The position numbers and the translations under genes are program-made. 64,000 bases of DNA from Escherichia coli (GTDB lineage: Bacteria > Pseudomonadota > Gammaproteobacteria > Enterobacterales > Enterobacteriaceae), in NCBI RefSeq assembly GCF_051903065.1, contig NZ_CP178438.1; one strand, written 5' to 3'. This document shows, one piece after another, positions 9,082 through 51,662 of the stretch. Numbering within the stretch: the stretch's first letter is position 1; every line of letters begins with the position of its first letter. The notes beneath the pieces are model-generated. The model saw only the letters and a program-made list of their open reading frames with translations, made no database searches and was not told the DNA's origin.

Positions 9082-9906
9082 TCAGGCGGTGAAAGTACCA
9101 ATAAAGGTTTCTACTTTGCTGTCCTTGAATTTCTCAACAAGCAGATCACGAAATTCGTTAGCCATTTCTTCCTGCACCGCCTCCAGCTGAATAATGCGCA
9201 GAACCAGTACAGGACGATCGCCAGTGATAATGCTGAGGCGTAATTTAAACGGACGTTCTTTCAGACCTTCAAACGGAACGCATTTAAATTCAAATGCCAC
9301 TGGCATAATGTCTTTGGTCTTCGCTTCGACAGACTCCATCAGGGAGCGTTTGCCGCTGAAGTCATTGTCTTCAAAATCAGCGGTCTGGTTCGCTTCAATT
9401 GTGATTTTACGGATCGCCGCAGCCGCTTTGGTTGCCTGAATGGCGTCACCATTAGCATCAAAGCCCACAAGGTAGTCTGCCCAGTCTTCAATCCATTCTG
9501 CCAGTGACTTCTGGGAGTTACGCTCGCCATTAACAGACAACAGAGCAGAGAACGGTGCTGTCTTTTTCAGTTTGAGAGTGGCGGTGTTATCTGCGTGACC
9601 TGGTTCATCAATAGTACCCAGGTTAAGCACACTGACGGCTCGCATATTATCGGCATCGATAAAGCAGCGGGTGCCTTCATCTGCAAGATCTTTAGAATAA
9701 CGGGTAAAGTCATCGATGCTGGCAGTGGAAAGTGCACCACGGAAACGGAAACGATTTAAATTAAATTTTTCCAGATCATGAATGCGGAAATTCTCAGGCA
9801 ATGCCACAGCATCGGCACCAATCTTACTGATAATTTCATTAACACCCTGAGCAGAAATAAGGGCATGGATTTGATTAATTGCGGTTGAGTCTAAGTTCTG
9901 AGACAT
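9082..9906 (-). CDS. DUF2303-like phage protein (YfdQ-like)
   Basis: 274 aa [21 protein letters not shown]...; recalled resemblance to CPS-53 yfdQ. Confidence 0.55.
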
Positions 9907-9971
9907 AATAAGTCCTCACTATATTAAGATATTCAGTGATGAGATAAATAATCAGTTAATTAAGAACGATA

Positions 9972-10334
9972 TTAATGACCTGCTGCGCGGAGTTTTCCGT
10001 CAGGTTCACCGGCAAGAGTCAGTAATTGTCCCTGGTCTTCCTGCAGAATAGTCAGGCGACCACCGCGATTGACATACATCGGCGTTTCGGTGGTGTCTTC
10101 TTCGGAAATTTTCCCGCGGTTAGTCGGGCGAACATATGAGAGTTTGTGTTTGATTTTCACACGGTTCTCATCAAATGGTTCGATTTCCAGGTTGAGTGAG
10201 ACCTTACCTTTGGTTTTCGTGTTCATCACACCGGAAGCGACTTCACTGAGAACTGCGCCGATTTTGGTTTCAAATACGCCGCCGTCCAGCTCCCCGATAA
10301 ATTCCTGCACGTTGGTACTGCGTTCGCTAGCCAT
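9972..10334 (-). CDS. hypothetical phage early protein (120 aa, YfdP-like)
   Basis: Real start taken at the internal Met (MASERSTNVQEF...) preceded by GAGGAG; the track ORF was extended upstream across a hairpin region. Confidence 0.55.
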   Translation of the reverse strand: MASERSTNVQEFIGELDGGVFETKIGAVLSEVASGVMNTKTKGKVSLNLEIEPFDENRVKIKHKLSYVRPTNRGKISEEDTTETPMYVNRGGRLTILQEDQGQLLTLAGEPDGKLRAAGH

Positions 10335-10942
10335 TTTGCTGCTCCTCATCATATCGACCCTGCAAGGTCGGTTGGTTTCTCCACAAAACAGAGAAGAACA
10401 CCTGCGGTGGTAGCCGCCCGGATGGATTGGGTTATGAGCCCGTCGTCCGGTGATGCTCTTCTCTGTTTTGTAAAAAGAGCGGTACCAGCCGGAAGCAAGT
10501 GTACAAACTGGTACCGCCAAAGCAGTGGCTGTTGTGGTGGGGTTGTCACTCAGGCGTATGGTCAACCTGACAATCCGGTGTCCTCAACGGGGAAAGAGTA
10601 ACCCCGCCATACTTACCGCCGCGCCATTTCGCGGATTACCACAACGCTGAGAGCACTTAGCCAGTTACGGCACCACACTTTGTCGAGGTTCCATAAATGC
10701 CCTCATCGTTGCACCCTGGTCTCTTCCCAGGCGTCAAACCGAATCGCCACGCTGGTTAGGCGTCTTATCAGCATCCTCATTGACTTGCACATTCCGGCTA
10801 CCTGGTTTGTTTGCCCGAGCAAGGAGTGGATTGTCCCCTTTAACGTCCCCAGACCGCTAACGACGCATGTGCCATACGCCGTGTTACAACCAAATTTTGT
10901 CAGGACCTTGTTTGTTGGTCTGGAAAGAAAGATAAAATGAAA

Positions 10943-10980
10943 TTGCGTAACGTGCAAGTATTTTATTGCGAGATATGCAA
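10943..10980. promoter_or_regulatory. putative OL operators / pL region
   Basis: Two TTGC-N7-GCAA palindromes (TTGCGTAACGTGCAA 10943-10957; TTGCGAGATATGCAA 10966-10980), the same motif as at the cI/cro intergenic region. Confidence 0.5.
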
Positions 10981-10994
10981 TAGTGTGAGTAATG

Positions 10995-11016
10995 AAAAGC
11001 CACCTTCTGGTGGCTA
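10995..11016 (-). terminator. terminator downstream of the repressor gene
   Basis: GCCACC-ttct-GGTGGC hairpin (11000-11015) followed by a U-run on the minus strand. Confidence 0.55.
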
Positions 11017-11036
11017 ATTGATGTTGAGGTAGGGGG

Positions 11037-11729
11037 TTAATTGTGTCGCTTAAGGGTTTGTGACTGACTGATTAAGACCTTTCCAAAGACCATAAACCGG
11101 TGTTCGTTTTCGCTGGTAATTCCCCATTCGCGGTAAATCTGATTATCAGAAATTACCAGCAGTTTATCAGGTATCATTTGCAGTCGTTTGACGTAAATTT
11201 TATCATCAAAACCAAATACATATATACCATCCCCATCAAACTGATTGATACTGATATCAACGAAGATGAGATCTCCTGGCTCAATGGTTGGACACATACT
11301 GTCCCCACGAACGTTGATAACTTTAATGTGATTTGCTGGTCGTCCACCAAACATCGATACAGCATTATCAGTTCTGTATTCAATGGCATGAATCACATCA
11401 ATGACATCACCGCCCTGGATAAGGCCATTTCCCGCACTGGCACTGACATCCAGCATTTCAATACGGAATACATCCTTCACCTGCGCAACATCCTCACTAA
11501 TACTGTTTTTACATACAGTATTACTTTTGAGGTCTGAGGTAAAGAGATCAGCAATATCAACACCTAAGCTCCTGGCAATATTACTCAGGGCTTGTTCAGT
11601 GAATTGTTTCTGCTTACCTGTTTCGAGGCGCGAGATATTCGCCGCATCCACTCCTATTGCTTCAGCGAGATCGGCGATTTTCATGTTCTTCGCCTGGCGA
11701 AGTTGTCTGACTCGATTTCCTATGTTCAT
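11037..11729 (-). CDS. CI-like prophage repressor (HTH_XRE + S24 LexA-like peptidase domain)
   Basis: 230 aa; N-terminal IGNRVRQLRQAKNMKIADLAEAIGVDAANISRLETGK (HTH); C-terminal ..VRGDSMCPTIEPGDLIFVD...KRL (Ser/Lys autocleavage-type motifs). Confidence 0.85.
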   Translation of the reverse strand: MNIGNRVRQLRQAKNMKIADLAEAIGVDAANISRLETGKQKQFTEQALSNIARSLGVDIADLFTSDLKSNTVCKNSISEDVAQVKDVFRIEMLDVSASAGNGLIQGGDVIDVIHAIEYRTDNAVSMFGGRPANHIKVINVRGDSMCPTIEPGDLIFVDISINQFDGDGIYVFGFDDKIYVKRLQMIPDKLLVISDNQIYREWGITSENEHRFMVFGKVLISQSQTLKRHN

Positions 11730-11826
11730 GCGTTTATTACATTTCTTTATTGCGCGTTAAGCAAATCAACTTGCGCAAAATATTTGCGTGAAATAATATG
11801 CTCATCACGCAATATGTGGAGGTTAT
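11730..11826. promoter_or_regulatory. divergent PRM/PR promoter-operator region
   Basis: TTGCGCGTTAAGCAA (11750-11764; TTGC-N7-GCAA), palindromic TTGCGCAA (11771-11778), inverted repeat TTGCGTGA...TCACGCAA (11784-11812); candidate PR -35 TTGCGC / -10 TAATAT with 17-bp spacing. Confidence 0.6.
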
Positions 11827-12087
11827 ATGCAATCACCATTACGGAATGTGCGTAAGGCGCACGGATTTACTTTGCAGCATGTTGCTGCGGGCGTTCAGGT
11901 CAATCCAGCGACGCTGAGTCGTATTGAAAGACTGGAACAAATTCCATCTATCGATCTTGCAGAACGTCTGGCCAATTTTTTTAAGGGTGAAATCAGCGAA
12001 ATGCAGATTCTTTATCCGGCACGTTTTCAATCTAGCCAAAACCAGAATGGGTTTAAACCACAGGAACAGGAGGTAAGCCGTGGGTAA
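11827..12087 (+). CDS. Cro-like HTH regulator
   Basis: 86 aa; GGAGG RBS; ..AHGFTLQHVAAGVQVNPATLSRIER.. HTH; divergent from the repressor gene. Confidence 0.75.
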   Translation: MQSPLRNVRKAHGFTLQHVAAGVQVNPATLSRIERLEQIPSIDLAERLANFFKGEISEMQILYPARFQSSQNQNGFKPQEQEVSRG

Positions 12088-12631
12088 GCATCATTGGAAA
12101 GTGGAAAAACAACCTGAGTGGTACGTGAAAGCTGTCAGAAAAACTATCGCGGCATTGCCAGGGGGTTACGCTGAAGCTGCTGACTGGCTGGATGTAACAG
12201 AGAACGCTTTATTCAACCGCCTTCGTGCAGATGGCGATCAGATTTTCCCGTTGGGATGGGCAATGGTTTTACAGCGTGCTGCTGGCAATCACCACATTGC
12301 GGATGCTGTCGCACAGTCTGCTGGTGGGGTGTTTGTATCACTTCCTGAAATTGAGGAAGTAGAGAACGCCGATATCAACCAGCGCCTGCTGGAGGTCATT
12401 GAACAGATCGGCAGTTATTCCAGACAGATTCGTTCAGCAATTGAAGACGGGGTGGTGGAACCACACGAGCAGGCAGCAATTAACGACGAGCTGTACATGT
12501 CAATTTCGAAGCTGCAGGAGCATGCAGCACTGGTCTACAAAATCTTTTGCGCTCCAGAAAAGAGTGACGCCCGCGAGTGTGCAGCTCCGGGCGCCGTGGC
12601 GTTTTGTGTCTGTGGAGAAACTAACGCATGA
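12080..12631 (+). CDS. hypothetical early protein (position of a CII-like regulator)
   Basis: 183 aa, GTG start with AGGAGG RBS, overlaps the cro stop; family not recognised. Confidence 0.45.
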
Positions 12632-12966
12632 ACAGTTTAACAACACACTACCGTCGCTCGCAACTGATTGCGCTTCCTGTACCGGGTGGAAAAGCGAAGG
12701 TGGAGTATTGCTATGCAGTGAATGTACCAGGTGACAGGGAAATTGTAACCCACAGCTTTGCAGAGTGGGCTGTGGGTGATTTCAACCGGCAGAAGGAGAC
12801 AGTCCTTTGCGACAAGTTAACCGCTGGTTCAAAGATCACTACGGAGTGCCCGTCAGAGTCATTCGTTGGGAGCCGGAAACACAACGGGTTATCTACCTCC
12901 GTGAAGGCTATGAACATGAATGCTTCAGTCCGCTCGAACAGTTTCGTCGTAAATTCAGGGAAATAG
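12628..12966 (+). CDS. hypothetical protein; an overlapping ORF in another frame (12807-13019) may represent a frameshift or second gene
   Basis: ATGA start-stop overlap with the upstream gene; the alternative frame looks more protein-like toward the 3' end. Confidence 0.3.
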
Positions 12967-12975
12967 AGGTCGGTC

Positions 12976-13968
12976 ATGAGCCTGTTAATGACATCCCAGC
13001 CCATTGTGATAAATCGTGATCTTGCATGCCGTATTGGTCTGAATGAGGCAATTGTGTTGCAGCAGCTTCATTACTGGCTGAATGAAACGAATTCAGGCAC
13101 TGAGCATGGCGGAATTCGCTGGGTTTATAACACGACAGAACAGTGGCTGGAGCAGTTTCCGTTCTGGTCAGAGTCCACTCTGAAACGCACATTTGCAAGC
13201 CTGAAATCACTTGGGGTTTTGCGTCGCGAGCAACTCAATAAATCGAAGCGTGACATGACCAACTTCTACACGATCAACTATGAAAGTGAGCTTTTAGAAG
13301 AGGTCAAAGTGAACGAATCGATCAGGTCAAAATGCACTTCTCCATCGGGTCAAAGTGACCTGATGGATGGGCGCAAAATGACACGATCCATTGGTTCAAA
13401 ACGACACGCTGTCATCGGGTCAAAATGGCCCAATGATCTTACAGAGAATACAACAGAGATTACTACAGAGAATAAAACCTCTTCTCGTCCGGACGCTTCG
13501 CAACCGGACACGCAAACGGCTGAACAGGAGTTTTTAACTCGCCATCCTGATGCGGTTGTATTCAGCCCTAAAAAGCGCCAGTGGGGAACGCAGGATGATT
13601 TGACCTGCGCACAGTGGCTCTGGAAAAAAATCATCGCCCTGTACGAGCAGGCCGCCGAATGTGACGGCGAGGTGGTTCGTCCCAAAGAACCGAACTGGAC
13701 AGCCTGGGCAAACGAAATTCGCCTGATGTGTGTGCAGGATGGTCGTACTCACAAACAAATCTGCGAGATGTACAGCCGCGTCAGCCGCGATCCGTTCTGG
13801 TGCCGTAACGTGCTCAGCCCGTCGAAGTTGCGGGAAAAATGGGATGAGCTTTCCCTGCGCTTATCGCCGTCCGTCAGCACGCACACAGAAAAACGTGAAG
13901 ACCCGTACTTCAAAGCCAGTTACGACAACGTGGACTACAGCCAGATCCCGGCAGGATTCAGGGGGTGA
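12976..13968 (+). CDS. replication initiator (lambda O-like / DnaD-like N-terminal domain) containing the origin iterons
   Basis: 330 aa; N-terminal winged-helix-like region; iterons lie within the coding sequence, as in lambda O. Confidence 0.65.
   Translation: MSLLMTSQPIVINRDLACRIGLNEAIVLQQLHYWLNETNSGTEHGGIRWVYNTTEQWLEQFPFWSESTLKRTFASLKSLGVLRREQLNKSKRDMTNFYTINYESELLEEVKVNESIRSKCTSPSGQSDLMDGRKMTRSIGSKRHAVIGSKWPNDLTENTTEITTENKTSSRPDASQPDTQTAEQEFLTRHPDAVVFSPKKRQWGTQDDLTCAQWLWKKIIALYEQAAECDGEVVRPKEPNWTAWANEIRLMCVQDGRTHKQICEMYSRVSRDPFWCRNVLSPSKLREKWDELSLRLSPSVSTHTEKREDPYFKASYDNVDYSQIPAGFRG
13301..13475. repeat. putative phage origin: five GGT(C/T)CAAA(A/G)-type iterons plus AT-rich ACAGAGAATA repeats
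   Basis: GGTCAAAGTG (13303), GGTCAAAATG (13325), GGTCAAAGTG (13348), GGTTCAAAACG (13393), GGTCAAAATG (13418); ACAGAGAATA x2 at 13441-13475. Confidence 0.6.
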
Positions 13969-14459
13969 TCATGAGTCTTTTGAATGAAGTTCAGAAATTC
14001 ATTGAAGCCCATCCGGGGTGTACTTCCGGAGACATTGCGGATGCTTTTGCAGGTTACTCACGGCAGCGCGTTCTGCAGTCAGCAAGCAAGTTACGTCAGA
14101 GTGGGCGTGTGGCTCACCGTTGTGAAGGAGATACACGCAGACATTTCCCACGCCTGACTGAGAGAGCGCAGGAGCCGGAACCACAACCAGTTCGTGAAAC
14201 CAGACCTGTGCGCAATTTCTATGTCGGCACTAACGATCCCCGGGTGATTTTGTGCCTGACCCGCCAGGCGGAAGAACTGGAGTCCAGGGGCCTATACCGT
14301 CGTGCTGCAACGGTGTGGATGGCGGCATTCCGTGAAAGCCACTCCCAGCCAGAACGAAACAATTTTCTGGTGCGTCGTGAGCAGTGTTTACGGAAAAGCA
14401 GCAAGCGCGCTGTATCGGGTGATGAGTGGTATCTGTCAGGGAATTACGTGGGGGCTTAA
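13965..14459 (+). CDS. hypothetical protein (possible DNA-binding/replication accessory)
   Basis: 164 aa; ATGA overlap with the O-like gene; no family recognised. Confidence 0.4.
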   Translation: MIMSLLNEVQKFIEAHPGCTSGDIADAFAGYSRQRVLQSASKLRQSGRVAHRCEGDTRRHFPRLTERAQEPEPQPVRETRPVRNFYVGTNDPRVILCLTRQAEELESRGLYRRAATVWMAAFRESHSQPERNNFLVRREQCLRKSSKRAVSGDEWYLSGNYVGA

Positions 14460-15112
14460 TGAGTAATAAATATTGCCAGGAGCTGGTGGAACTGCGGAAC
14501 AAACCAGCCCATGAACTGAAGGAAGTGGGTGATCAGTGGCGCACGCCGGACAACATTTTCTGGGGAATTAACACCCTGTTTGGCCCGTTTGTTCTGGATC
14601 TGTTCACTGACGGTGATAACGCCAAATGTGCCGCGTATTACACGGCGGAAGACAACGCGCTGGCGCATGACTGGTCAGAACGCCTTGCGGAGCTTAAAGG
14701 TGCTGCCTTTGGTAATCCTCCATACAGCCGCGCCAGTCAGCATGAGGGGCAATACATCACCGGCATGCGTTACATCATGAAACATGCCAGTGCCATGCGT
14801 GATAAGGGCGGGCGCTATGTTTTCCTGATCAAAGCTGCCACCAGCGAAGTGTGGTGGCCGGAAGATGCAGATCATATTGCTTTTATTCGCGGGCGTATTG
14901 GTTTTGAACTGCCTGTCTGGTTTATCCCGAAAGACGAGAAGCAGGTACCGACAGGAGCTTTTTTCGCTGGTGCTATTGCTGTTTTTGACAAGACCTGGAA
15001 GGGACCGGCAATCAGCTACATCGGGCGCGATGAACTTGAGGCATGTGGTGAGGCGTTTCTGGCGCAGGTTCGCCAGCAGGCGGAAAAACTGGTCAGGGAG
15101 ATGGCGGCATGA
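14459..15112 (+). CDS. phage Dam-type N6-adenine DNA methyltransferase
   Basis: Start at the internal ATG overlapping the upstream stop (TAATG); catalytic ..AFGNPPYSRA.. (NPPY) motif. Confidence 0.7.
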   Translation: MSNKYCQELVELRNKPAHELKEVGDQWRTPDNIFWGINTLFGPFVLDLFTDGDNAKCAAYYTAEDNALAHDWSERLAELKGAAFGNPPYSRASQHEGQYITGMRYIMKHASAMRDKGGRYVFLIKAATSEVWWPEDADHIAFIRGRIGFELPVWFIPKDEKQVPTGAFFAGAIAVFDKTWKGPAISYIGRDELEACGEAFLAQVRQQAEKLVREMAA

Positions 15113-15435
15113 CGACATTAACTCAATGCCAGCAGCAGGTGCTGGATATGCTGATTTCTTATCAGAAAGAGCGTGGCTTTCCGCCAACCAATCAGGAGGT
15201 GGCAACCATGCTGGGATACCGTTCAGTGAATGCAGCGGTGGAGCATCTTCGCGCACTGGAGAAAAAAGGCGTCATCACGATAAAGCGTGGCGTGGCCCGG
15301 GGGATAACGCTTCATACCGCGGTGAAGGACGACGACAGCGAGGCGGTCGGGATTATCCGCGCACTGCTTGCCGGTGAGGAAAACGCAAGGCTGCGTGCAA
15401 CCCACTGGTTACATGAGAGGGACCTGAAAGTATGA
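15109..15435 (+). CDS. LexA N-terminal DNA-binding-domain-like protein lacking the peptidase domain
   Basis: 108 aa; MTTLTQCQQQVLDMLISYQKERGFPPTNQEVATMLGYRSVNAAVEHLRALEKKGVITIKRGVARGITL aligns by eye with host LexA residues 1-69 in this same window. Confidence 0.7.
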   Translation: MTTLTQCQQQVLDMLISYQKERGFPPTNQEVATMLGYRSVNAAVEHLRALEKKGVITIKRGVARGITLHTAVKDDDSEAVGIIRALLAGEENARLRATHWLHERDLKV

Positions 15436-15821
15436 AGCTGATCCTGCCTTTTCCGCCCAGCGTGAACACGTACTGGCGACACCCCAACAAAGGGGCATTT
15501 TCTGGTAAGAGCCTGATAAGCGCGGCGGGGCGAAAATTTCAGAGCGCGGCGTGCGCAGCAATAGTTGAGCAGTTACGTCGTCTGCCAAAACCAACGTCGG
15601 CACCTGCTTCAGTGGAGATCGTGTTGTTTCCTCCGGATAACCGGATCCGCGATCTGGACAACTATAACAAGGCGCTGTTTGACGCCCTGACCCACGCGGG
15701 TGTGTGGGAAGACGACAGACAGGTGAAAAGAATGCTGGTGGAGTGGGGACCGGTTATCCCGGAAGGGAAGGTCGAGATCACTATCAGTAAGTACGAGAAA
15801 ACGGCGGGTGCAGCCGCCTGA
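15432..15821 (+). CDS. rusA: RusA Holliday-junction resolvase
   Basis: 129 aa; ..LPFPPSVNTYWRH..RDLDNYNKALFDALTHAGVWEDDRQV.. matches the recalled RusA family pattern. Confidence 0.8.
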   Translation: MKLILPFPPSVNTYWRHPNKGAFSGKSLISAAGRKFQSAACAAIVEQLRRLPKPTSAPASVEIVLFPPDNRIRDLDNYNKALFDALTHAGVWEDDRQVKRMLVEWGPVIPEGKVEITISKYEKTAGAAA

Positions 15822-15840
15822 GCAAAAGGAGAAACGAAGT

Positions 15841-16650
15841 ATGAATAATCTGATGGTCATTGATGGTATTGAAGTTCGTCGTGATGCTTATGGGCGTTAC
15901 AGCCTGAACGATCTGCATCGCGCAGCAGTAGCATCTGGTGCAAATGCCAGAACCAAGGAGCCGGGAAAGTTTCTTTCCAGCCAACAAACTGTTGAGCTTG
16001 TTCATGAATTGACCAACACCCAGAATTTGGGTGTTGACCCGGTGAGTGTGATTCATGGGGGAAATGAAAGGGGAACGTATGTCTGCAAGGAACTGGTGTA
16101 TGCCTATGCAATGTGGATCAGCCCGTCATTCCATCTGAAGGTGATCCGTACTTTCGATATGGTAACCAGCGCACCGGAAAAATTATCCGGACAGGCTGCT
16201 GACAAGATGCAGGCTGGCGTGATCCTGCTGGACTTTATGCGCCGGGAGTTAAACCTGTCTAACTCTTCAGTGCTTGGTGCCTGTCAGAAACTCCAGGAGG
16301 CTGTTGGCTTACCGAATCTGGCACCGCGCTATGCCATTGATGCTCCTGCTGACGCGCCTGATGGCTCAAGCCGCCCCACGCTATCATTGAGTGCACTGCT
16401 GAAGCAGTATGGTATCCGCCTGACAGCTAATCAGGCATATCACCAGATGGCGAAGCTGGGGATCGTTGAACAACGTGAACGATACAGCCGCACTGCGATT
16501 AACAACATCAAAAAATTCTGGTCGCTGACAGCGAAAGGCTGCATGTTCGGCAAGAACATCACCAGTCCCGCAAATCCGCGCGAGACGCAGCCGCATTTCT
16601 TCGAATCCCGATTCCCTGAGCTGTTAAAGCTGCTCGATACCGTTCATTGA
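15841..16650 (+). CDS. KilA-N domain protein (anti-repressor-like)
   Basis: 270 aa; MNNLMVIDGIEVRRDAYGRYSLNDLHRAA.. N-terminus typical of KilA-N; ATG preceded by AAAGGAG. Confidence 0.6.
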   Translation: MNNLMVIDGIEVRRDAYGRYSLNDLHRAAVASGANARTKEPGKFLSSQQTVELVHELTNTQNLGVDPVSVIHGGNERGTYVCKELVYAYAMWISPSFHLKVIRTFDMVTSAPEKLSGQAADKMQAGVILLDFMRRELNLSNSSVLGACQKLQEAVGLPNLAPRYAIDAPADAPDGSSRPTLSLSALLKQYGIRLTANQAYHQMAKLGIVEQRERYSRTAINNIKKFWSLTAKGCMFGKNITSPANPRETQPHFFESRFPELLKLLDTVH

Positions 16651-48612: not shown

Positions 48613-49806
48613 GTGTTTCAAAAAGTTGACGCCTACGCTGGCGACCCGATTCTTACGCTTATGGAGCGTTTTAAAGAAGACCCTCGCAGCGACAAAGTGA
48701 ATTTAAGTATCGGTCTGTACTACAACGAAGACGGAATTATTCCACAACTGAAAGCCGTGGCGGAGGCGGAAGCGCGCCTGAATGCGGTGCCTCATGGCGC
48801 TTCGCTTTATTTACCGATGGAAGGGCTTAACAGCTATCGCCATGCCATTGCGCCGCTGCTGTTTGGTGCCGACCATCCGGTACTGCAACAACAGCGCGTA
48901 GCAACCATTCAAACCCTTGGCGGCTCAGGGGCATTGAAAGTGGGCGCGGATTTCCTGAAACGCTACTTTCCGGAATCAGGCGTCTGGGTCAGCGATCCTA
49001 CCTGGGAAAACCACGTAGCAATATTCGCCGGGGCTGGATTCGAAGTGAGTACTTACCCCTGGTATGACGAAGCGACTAACGGCGTGCGCTTTAATGACCT
49101 GTTGGCGACGCTGAAAACATTACCTGCCCGCAGTATTGTGTTGCTGCATCCATGTTGCCACAACCCAACGGGTGCCGATCTCACTAATGACCAGTGGGAT
49201 GCGGTGATTGAAATTCTCAAAGCCCGCGAACTTATCCCATTCCTTGATATTGCCTATCAAGGATTTGGTGCCGGTATGGAAGAGGATGCCTACGCCATTC
49301 GCGCCATTGCCAGCGCTGGATTACCCGCTCTGGTGAGCAATTCGTTCTCGAAAATTTTCTCCCTTTACGGCGAGCGCGTTGGCGGACTTTCTGTTCTGTG
49401 TGAAGATGCCGAAGCTGCAGGCCGCGTACTGGGGCAATTGAAAGCAACAGTTCGCCGCAACTACTCCAGCCCGCCGAATTTTGGTGCGCAGGTGGTGGCT
49501 GCGGTGCTGAATGACGAGGCATTGAAAGCCAGCTGGCTGGCGGAAGTAGAAGAGATGCGTACTCGCATTCTGGCAATGCGTCAGGAACTGGTGAAGGTAT
49601 TGAGCACAGAGATGCCAGAACGCAATTTCGATTATCTGCTTAATCAGCGCGGCATGTTCAGTTATACAGGTTTAAGTGCCGCTCAGGTTGACCGACTACG
49701 TGAGGAGTTTGGTGTTTATCTCATCGCCAGCGGTCGCATGTGTGTCGCCGGGTTAAATACGGCAAATGTACAACGTGTGGCAAAGGCGTTTGCTGCGGTG
49801 ATGTAA
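48613..49806 (+). CDS. tyrB: aromatic amino acid aminotransferase
   Basis: GTG start giving [16 protein letters not shown]..; class-I aminotransferase; track began at an upstream TTG. Confidence 0.9.
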
Positions 49807-49807
49807 T

Positions 49808-49842
49808 GCAGGAAAGCAGGCTGGAGTTACCCAGCCTGCAGT
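49808..49842 (+). terminator. rho-independent terminator after tyrB
   Basis: GCAGGCTGG-agttac-CCAGCCTGC hairpin. Confidence 0.6.
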
Positions 49843-50027
49843 GAAATTAAACTGTCGTCGCTTTCACTCTTTCTTTATAGATGATTTTTTTGATGCCATC
49901 GTTCTACGTAAGAGATAATAAACGTTATTAGTTCTTTTATTGTTAAGCTTATCCCAATTATCTGGAATTCCTTATCCTGTTTTTTTGTGTGGAGTAATAA
50001 TTTCTGCACATCTAACCATTATTAAAT

Positions 50028-50570
50028 TTAATAATAAGTGCCGGGTTTGTTACGATAGAATTTTTCTATATCCTCAAGAATATGCTTTGCCTTATTGCCT
50101 GTGACTTTCTGAGATTCAATTATAGTATCGTTAAATTCTAAAGTTAAAGAGAACTCTTTTTTTCCGCTTTGTGTAAGTTTAACCTTATATTGATTACCAA
50201 TATCAAATAAAAAGGTCCTGTAATGAGAATAATCACCTTTAACCTCCTCGGCAAAACAGCAAAGCGTGCAAATATACATAAAATCTTTCTTACCCCTGAT
50301 TTTGTTAACTAAATCAATAAATGCGTGAAAAACTGTACTTGCAATAGAACTTGATGCTTCTTCTCCAGGTCTACAAAAATCTTTTGCAATTTTTAACTGT
50401 GTTTCTATATATAAAAAGAGATCTTTGGCATAAGAGAAATCTTTGGCATAAGAGATATCTTTGTTATTTAGTGTATCTAGCTCTACAGGTAAAGATGTCG
50501 TTTTGTTGCTATTCACATATGATATATTCATGTCATCATCTCCTTCGGGAGTAATAAAATTAGTCACCAT
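50028..50570 (-). CDS. AT-rich hypothetical protein (yjbS locus) with an 18-nt tandem duplication
   Basis: 180-aa ORF in a low-GC island between tyrB and aphA; tandem repeat at 50421-50456 encodes DISYAKDFSYAKD; start codon uncertain. Confidence 0.45.
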   Translation of the reverse strand: MVTNFITPEGDDDMNISYVNSNKTTSLPVELDTLNNKDISYAKDFSYAKDLFLYIETQLKIAKDFCRPGEEASSSIASTVFHAFIDLVNKIRGKKDFMYICTLCCFAEEVKGDYSHYRTFLFDIGNQYKVKLTQSGKKEFSLTLEFNDTIIESQKVTGNKAKHILEDIEKFYRNKPGTYY

Positions 50571-50669
50571 TGTAGGGTAGGGTTCTGGTCAATCAGAAAT
50601 CATCTTTATAAAAATGTTATTTTATAAACTTCGATTGTTTTTGTAATGCTGTATCATTAAGTTCATTAA

Positions 50670-51662
<993 letters not shown>

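Follow-up and report, generated by a model that had tools for sequence, protein, structure and literature searches.

The window analysed here is a stretch of 64,000 nucleotides of Escherichia coli DNA (contig NZ_CP178438.1), and its segment from 49800 to 50960 is 100% identical to the chromosome of E. coli 23CRST027 in RefSeq, where the gene order reads alr-tyrB-ORF-aphA-yjbQ-yjbR. The open reading frame (ORF) that concerns us lies between the end of tyrB at 49806 and the start of aphA at 50949, on the strand opposite to both of these genes, and it is embedded in a 1.0-kb islet of AT-rich DNA that varies among strains (Table 1). The ORF and the whole islet both have a GC content of 31%, versus approximately 50-58% in the flanks. 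The first-pass annotation, made from the sequence of the window, had described an AT-rich frame of 180 codons in the tyrB-aphA gap, and the frame was found exactly as claimed, on the minus strand and with an ATG start.

Table 1. Features of the tyrB-aphA interval, in window coordinates
Feature	Position	Strand	Description
AT-rich variable islet, 1.0 kb	49807-50809		Extends from the stop codon of tyrB up to a point ~140 nt upstream of aphA
Hairpin GCAGGCTGG-AGTTAC-CCAGCCTGC	49816-49839	+	9-bp stem and 6-nt loop, directly after tyrB
Long ORF	50028-50570	-	180 aa from the first in-frame ATG; no Shine-Dalgarno sequence there
Probable true CDS, full-length yjbS	50028-50531	-	167 aa, 19.3 kDa, pI 7.6
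A7 homopolymer	50157-50163	-	Codons 123-125; recurrent site of frame-breaking deletions
T5 run	50375-50379	-	Codons 51-53; second 1-nt deletion of the K-12-type allele, which creates the 67-aa 'YjbS'
18-nt in-frame tandem repeat, AAAGAT[A/T]TCTCTTATGCC on the coding strand	50417-50463	-	Encodes K-D-(I/F)-S-Y-A
Shine-Dalgarno sequence AAGGAG	50540-50545	-	8-nt spacer to the second in-frame ATG (50531-50529)
16-nt insertion TTTATAAAAATGTTAT	50605-50620		AT-rich leader/promoter region between the ORF and aphA

Two marks of a horizontally acquired, H-NS-silenced islet are present at this locus, namely a GC content far below that of the flanks and a presence/absence polymorphism at a fixed site. 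A donor signature in the form of an integrase, direct repeats or phage or plasmid relatives was not found: a direct-repeat search of the islet ends turned up flanking repeats of chance size only, and the islet holds no mobility genes. The hairpin that immediately follows tyrB is presumed to be the terminator of that gene and may possibly serve the convergent ORF transcript as well; it was not among the sites listed by a terminator scan with a strict T-run criterion. At the other end of the ORF, the 16-nt insertion is missing from all three of the other strains aligned there, and identity to the window reaches 99% or more at this region in only about 22 complete genomes. The inserted TTTATAAAAATGTTAT in part repeats the adjoining TTTATAAA. 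A promoter scan of the region returned 6 sites, which is no excess over the 5.6 obtained in shuffled sequence, and no RNA element matched Rfam at E ≤ 1.

The frame itself is longer than composition would lead one to expect. Its stop-free run extends over 186 codons, where 2000 shuffled versions of the islet gave 68 on average and 159 at most, and the GC content declines with codon position in the order GC1 > GC2 > GC3 (36/30/26%). With regard to where translation begins, the second in-frame ATG, at 50531, appears the likelier start and would yield a product of 167 aa in this strain. We prefer it because it is the one preceded by a Shine-Dalgarno sequence, and because the representatives of the 167-aa allele in the public protein collection begin there. 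The GGAG core of this sequence is conserved in 18 of the 18 alleles aligned.

K-12 carries the small gene yjbS at this position, and the first-pass annotation had proposed that the long ORF might be the intact ancestral form of a gene that has been degraded elsewhere. Comparison with K-12-type DNA bore this out. Using strain ER1709 as the K-12-type reference, in which the gene is annotated as yjbS with 67 aa, we could align the two sequences base for base over the whole intergenic region at approximately 95% nucleotide identity. Within the ORF the K-12-type allele has one repeat copy fewer, one nucleotide less in the T5 run and one nucleotide less in the A7 run. The locus, strand and start codon are the same, and the first 52 residues here, minus one hexapeptide, have their counterpart in residues 1-46 of K-12 YjbS; the K-12 gene differs in its two 1-nt deletions and its single repeat copy, so that its 46 in-frame residues are followed by 21 out-of-frame ones (47-67) and the C-terminal 115 residues of the full protein are absent. 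On the strength of this alignment, K-12 yjbS is best seen as the pseudogene stump of a full-length gene.

Other lineages have been broken independently of this event. The A7 run is the site of damage in the K-12 type, in a class of alleles measuring 590 nt, in strain 98191 and in O157:H7, and the lesions among the broken alleles comprise the loss of a single nucleotide confined to A7, a deletion of 2 nt next to that run, the K-12 pair of deletions, a 10-nt deletion covering A7 in O157:H7, and IS1 insertions. There are thus at least five different inactivating lesions, mostly at the A7 run, and a nonsense substitution is responsible in none of the broken alleles examined. Since different lesions occur on different allele backgrounds, the broken alleles are derived from the open frame. 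No outgroup species has the gene, so that the word ancestral is valid only within E. coli, and it does not extend to the copy number of the repeat, which cannot be polarised. As to IS1, it has inserted independently in the yjbS of natural isolates, and the AT-rich ORF is an apparent target hotspot for the element; in K-12, too, the gene was hit by IS1 on two occasions during an experiment on adaptation to macrophages, at coordinate 4,205,688 (PMC4999529).

The intact form is by no means confined to the strain studied here. Of 5426 complete E. coli genomes, 4350 (~80%) contain the ORF region, and the shares of intact and broken alleles among these carriers were estimated from a systematic sample of 60 rows taken down the ranking of matches. 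Intact alleles accounted for 28 of the 60, with 25 genomes in the window-like 591-nt class, two at 573 nt and one at 609 nt. The 32 broken ones were made up of 21 genomes of the K-12 type at 571 nt (one of them also with IS1), four at 590 nt, one at 572 nt, four of the O157:H7 type at 563 nt, one with a further IS1 insertion and one with a partial match. An intact gene would thus be found in approximately 47% of carriers (rough 95% interval, 34-60%) and approximately 37% of all complete genomes, and an earlier sample of 30 rows gave a similar intact fraction by length class. Length proved a good guide to integrity: 10 of 10 alleles fetched from the 591-, 573- and 609-nt classes, chosen to spread over identity levels, translate without interruption, and so do three further alleles of intact length from the earlier sample. 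The exact protein of the window is present on 473 public contigs as a 'hypothetical protein'. The 36 distinct intact protein alleles compared have a mosaic look in which invariant blocks (e.g. LYIETQLKIAKDFCRPGEE and VTGNKAKHIL) are interspersed with variable patches, which lie at approximately residues 95-116 and 135-158.

This distribution also settles the other origin that had been suggested for the ORF, a strain-specific acquisition. In 4350 of the 5426 genomes the islet occupies this very position, with the long frame kept in many divergent alleles, and the suggestion is thereby refuted. In its broader form, the idea of a recent acquisition peculiar to this strain could draw on the low GC content and on the lack of relatives outside E. 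coli, but it is scarcely credible given that the same-site islet is so widespread, that its alleles diverge by as much as approximately 8%, and that the gene occurs in Shigella too.

The intact alleles also vary at the tandem repeat. Tandem Repeats Finder (TRF) reports a period of 18, 2.6 copies and 93% matches at 50417-50463. The first-pass annotation had called the segment from 50421 to 50456 a perfect duplication; the duplication exists and the peptide given for it, DISYAKDFSYAKD, is correct, but the two copies (50421-50438 and 50439-50456) agree at 17 of 18 positions rather than all of them. Their last bases are A and T, which makes the difference between Ile and Phe, and the longest exact run at an offset of 18 is accordingly 17 nt. 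Across strains with an otherwise intact frame, one, two or three copies give proteins of 161, 167 or 173 aa. A single copy is found in strains S3 and UCPROB-001, two copies in most strains and three in strain 1190. Because the single-copy alleles have either the Ile or the Phe version, repeat units appear to have been gained and lost repeatedly, which suggests replication slippage.

The combination of a homopolymer and a short tandem repeat, both in frame and both of strain-variable length, is a feature that yjbS shares with simple-sequence contingency loci. In-frame tract length does vary between strains (A7 versus A6, tract deletions, and one to three repeat copies), frame breaks at A7 recur in unrelated allele backgrounds, and one can therefore imagine that the A7 run and the 18-nt repeat switch the gene or vary its product at high frequency within strains. 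We nevertheless regard this as quite improbable. Seven bases are short for a high-rate switch, and the lesions have a fixed and cumulative appearance. They look fixed by lineage in that the K-12-type allele is the same in many unrelated isolates and carries a second frameshift in addition to the one at A7. The 10-nt deletion of O157 is, moreover, irreversible.

The remaining fifth of E. coli genomes provides a view of what else can occupy the interval. In an islet-less genome, that of E. coli WP4-W18-ESBL-08, homology to the window ends at 49804 and resumes at 50810, and the tyrB-aphA interval is filled by 13.7 kb of DNA (2286-16000 of the extracted locus) encoding a second 2-oxoglutarate dehydrogenase, a succinyl-CoA synthetase, a transporter and a sigma-54 two-component system. 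This DNA is the island for alpha-ketoglutarate utilisation (kgu; c5032-c5041 in CFT073) that Cai et al. (2013, PMC3694859) described in uropathogenic E. coli as an insertion in the tyrB-aphA gap, and it takes the place of the islet in genomes of the B2 type. It shares with the islet the exact interval from the tyrB stop codon to approximately 140 nt upstream of aphA, and differs from it in its length of 13.7 kb, its ten genes of known function and a sequence unrelated to that of the islet. Judging from the breakpoints in the one islet-less genome checked, the islet and kgu are alternative occupants of a single hotspot with identical boundaries. The rest of the islet-less ~20%, some 1075 other genomes, also appear to be kgu carriers, an assumption based on their identical match pattern.

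Within the genomes that have it, the islet stands out from its surroundings by its diversity. The intact allele furthest from the window among those retrieved shares 92.8% identity with it in the ORF and 90.9% in the non-coding 3' part of the islet, and for the same pair of strains the figures are 98.2% in tyrB and 99.8% in aphA. Because the divergence of the islet so far exceeds that of tyrB and aphA, its polymorphism would seem to be much older and deeper than that of its neighbours, or else faster-evolving, and the ORF would be protected only mildly. In terms of divergence between two E. coli strains, the islet segments 49807-50027 and 50028-50531 differ by 7-9%, and the tyrB and aphA flanks by 0.2-1.8%.

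Such figures raise the question of whether the long frame does anything at all. It could be a non-functional relic, a piece of silent, foreign AT-rich DNA whose frame has ceased to be translated or never was, and that stays open in those strains where it has not yet been hit. Several of the observations above sit comfortably with this idea: divergence proceeds at much the same rate in the ORF and in the adjoining non-coding DNA, inactivating lesions have accumulated independently, and the islet is dispensed with altogether in approximately 20% of genomes. Pairwise dN/dS among intact alleles ranges from 0.16 to 0.79, with several values not significantly below 1, and the corresponding K-12 locus is reported to be bound by H-NS and transcribed at a very low level (PMC3661553). 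On the other side of the balance, 14 intact alleles differ by 25 synonymous versus 49 nonsynonymous mutations on 92 versus 373 sites, and the resulting ratio of 0.48 represents a significant synonymous excess (binomial p = 0.003). Among 13 intact alleles aligned, length differences within the frame are always multiples of 18 nt. About 5.4% of point changes in the frame would make a stop codon, yet alleles differing at up to 7% of sites are still open. Finally, the Shine-Dalgarno sequence is conserved, the gradient of GC content across codon positions is coding-like, and the absence of nonsense substitutions from the broken alleles examined also speaks against a frame left to drift. We consider a relic unlikely on this evidence and infer that yjbS is translated, or was so until recently, and is subject to weak purifying selection. 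The literature searched held no expression data for the long form.

The product is as isolated as the gene. Neither a word-indexed search of 5.8 billion proteins nor an exhaustive HMMER search of 1.84 billion representatives detected a relative outside Escherichia and Shigella; the hits of substance in both were near-identical Escherichia/Shigella sequences or fragments of them. The one exception, a 25-residue stretch of a 4536-aa protein, was treated as spurious. Pfam, NCBIfam and PADLOC gave no match at E ≤ 1, and a search of PHROGs gave a single hit to a family of unknown function that is not significant (E = 0.084). No phage homologue was found in a search of a phage collection.

Two apparent exceptions to this narrow range were traced to problems with the database records. 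A plasmid origin was rejected, the plasmid hits being either chromosomes under a wrong label or records derived from a chromosome. A number of PLSDB entries of 4.8-4.9 Mb, given there as 'plasmids', are E. coli chromosomes, and a 17-kb 'Klebsiella oxytoca plasmid' (NZ_CP069917.1) has a gene annotated YjbS, with a match that is divided in the same way as that of the K-12 type; this last record is probably a contamination or misassembly. A scan of 100,044 genomes, one per species, which relied on two peptide patterns only and is hence less sensitive than the protein searches, returned a single locus, in 'Flavobacterium paronense' CECT 8460 (NZ_JAUFQN010000013.1). Since the contig, of 9.5 kb, matches the window at 97% identity over 6.1 kb (uvrA-alr), we dismissed this homologue as E. 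coli contamination. The E. coli representative in the collection is presumably a B2 strain that lacks the islet.

With no hydrophobic segment long enough to span a membrane, the product is predicted to be a soluble protein of 161-173 aa. The AlphaFold models are of low confidence and yield no informative fold; they agree on a disordered N-terminus rich in Ser, Thr and Asn, two long helices, an antiparallel sheet of four to five strands and a C-terminal helix, and they place the hexapeptide repeat KD(I/F)SYA at the start of the first long helix. A profile search of the PDB produced only one hit at E ≤ 10, the N-terminal domain of Salmonella SipA, which at E = 0.47 over 54 residues is not significant.

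The resemblance to SipA brings to mind a substrate of type III secretion (by the ETT2 or LEE systems) or a related virulence factor, all the more so as Ser, Thr and Asn abound among the first 25 residues and no acidic residue occurs before position 17. Such a role is, however, very unlikely. Beyond the poor score of the match, the SipA segment concerned is helical and the part of YjbS to which it aligns is predicted to form beta strands. N-termini rich in Asn, Ser, Thr, Ile and Lys are usual in AT-rich genes. The gene also stands alone, with no chaperone or secretion genes nearby.

Taking the evidence together, we propose that the ORF is an intact allele of yjbS and the sole gene of a 1-kb AT-rich islet between tyrB and aphA, an explanation to which, as a whole, we assign a probability of about 80%. 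The gene is probably dispensable and largely silenced by H-NS, as has been reported for the K-12 locus, and would for that reason be undergoing piecemeal loss. What its product might do when it is expressed is a matter for guesswork. One thought, doubtful as it is, would be a 'conflict' factor that binds other proteins, for example an orphan immunity protein or an inhibitor; the thought is prompted solely by the patchy mosaic that the alleles form and by the repeated loss of the gene. Improbable, too, is a bolder version of this idea in which full-length YjbS is the founder of an E. coli-restricted family engaged in inter-bacterial, phage or host conflict, so that the diversity, the hexapeptide variation and the on/off states of the A7 run would be products of selection and not of decay.

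Earlier work has touched on this locus from other directions. In K-12, the tyrB/yjbS region is one of 78 'promoter islands', classed as foreign DNA that overlaps a predicted genomic island and is bound by H-NS (Panyukov and Ozoline 2013, PMC3661553). The islet described here resembles these islands in its GC content of 31%, with the qualification that H-NS binding has been reported for the K-12 locus only. That work treats the region as a silent feature of the DNA, and the intact coding frame of other strains lies outside its scope. Separately, two TraDIS studies place yjbS in the group of genes that received few transposon insertions, and the designation 'essential' is taken up again in a recoding study (PMC5821084, PMC9687012, PMC13287592). 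We doubt that the gene is essential because the locus is absent in approximately 20% of E. coli, is deleted or hit by IS1 in many other strains, and in K-12 encodes a product that is largely out of frame. From what is generally known, the signal is best explained by a bias of insertion against AT-rich, H-NS-bound DNA. Literature referring to the O157 locus tags or to the WP accession was looked for, and nothing was found.

Database annotation reflects the stump as well. In strain 23CRST027, whose locus is identical to that of the window, the RefSeq annotation (PGAP) describes it as a 'hypothetical protein, frameshifted'. Other strains with an intact gene often have an additional 83-aa 'hypothetical protein' (WP_000275035.1) that corresponds to the C-terminal part of the product from an internal Met. 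The 'frameshifted' label of intact alleles probably stems from the use of the K-12 stump as the reference, and by our estimate some two thousand intact copies have been labelled in this way. The region marked as a 'frameshifted' pseudogene in intact alleles corresponds to 50309-50531 of the window.

Whatever the eventual role of the protein, the feature is an ordinary strain-variable accessory orphan gene that is already in the databases as a hypothetical protein. The value of recognising its full-length form is mainly one of curation, in that K-12 yjbS is better treated as a pseudogene. If YjbS did found a family of conflict proteins, the stump in the reference strain and the pseudogene label given to intact copies by RefSeq would explain why that family has escaped notice. 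In biological terms yjbS is one more lineage-restricted orphan caught mid-decay, and it would take on greater weight only with the discovery of a function.
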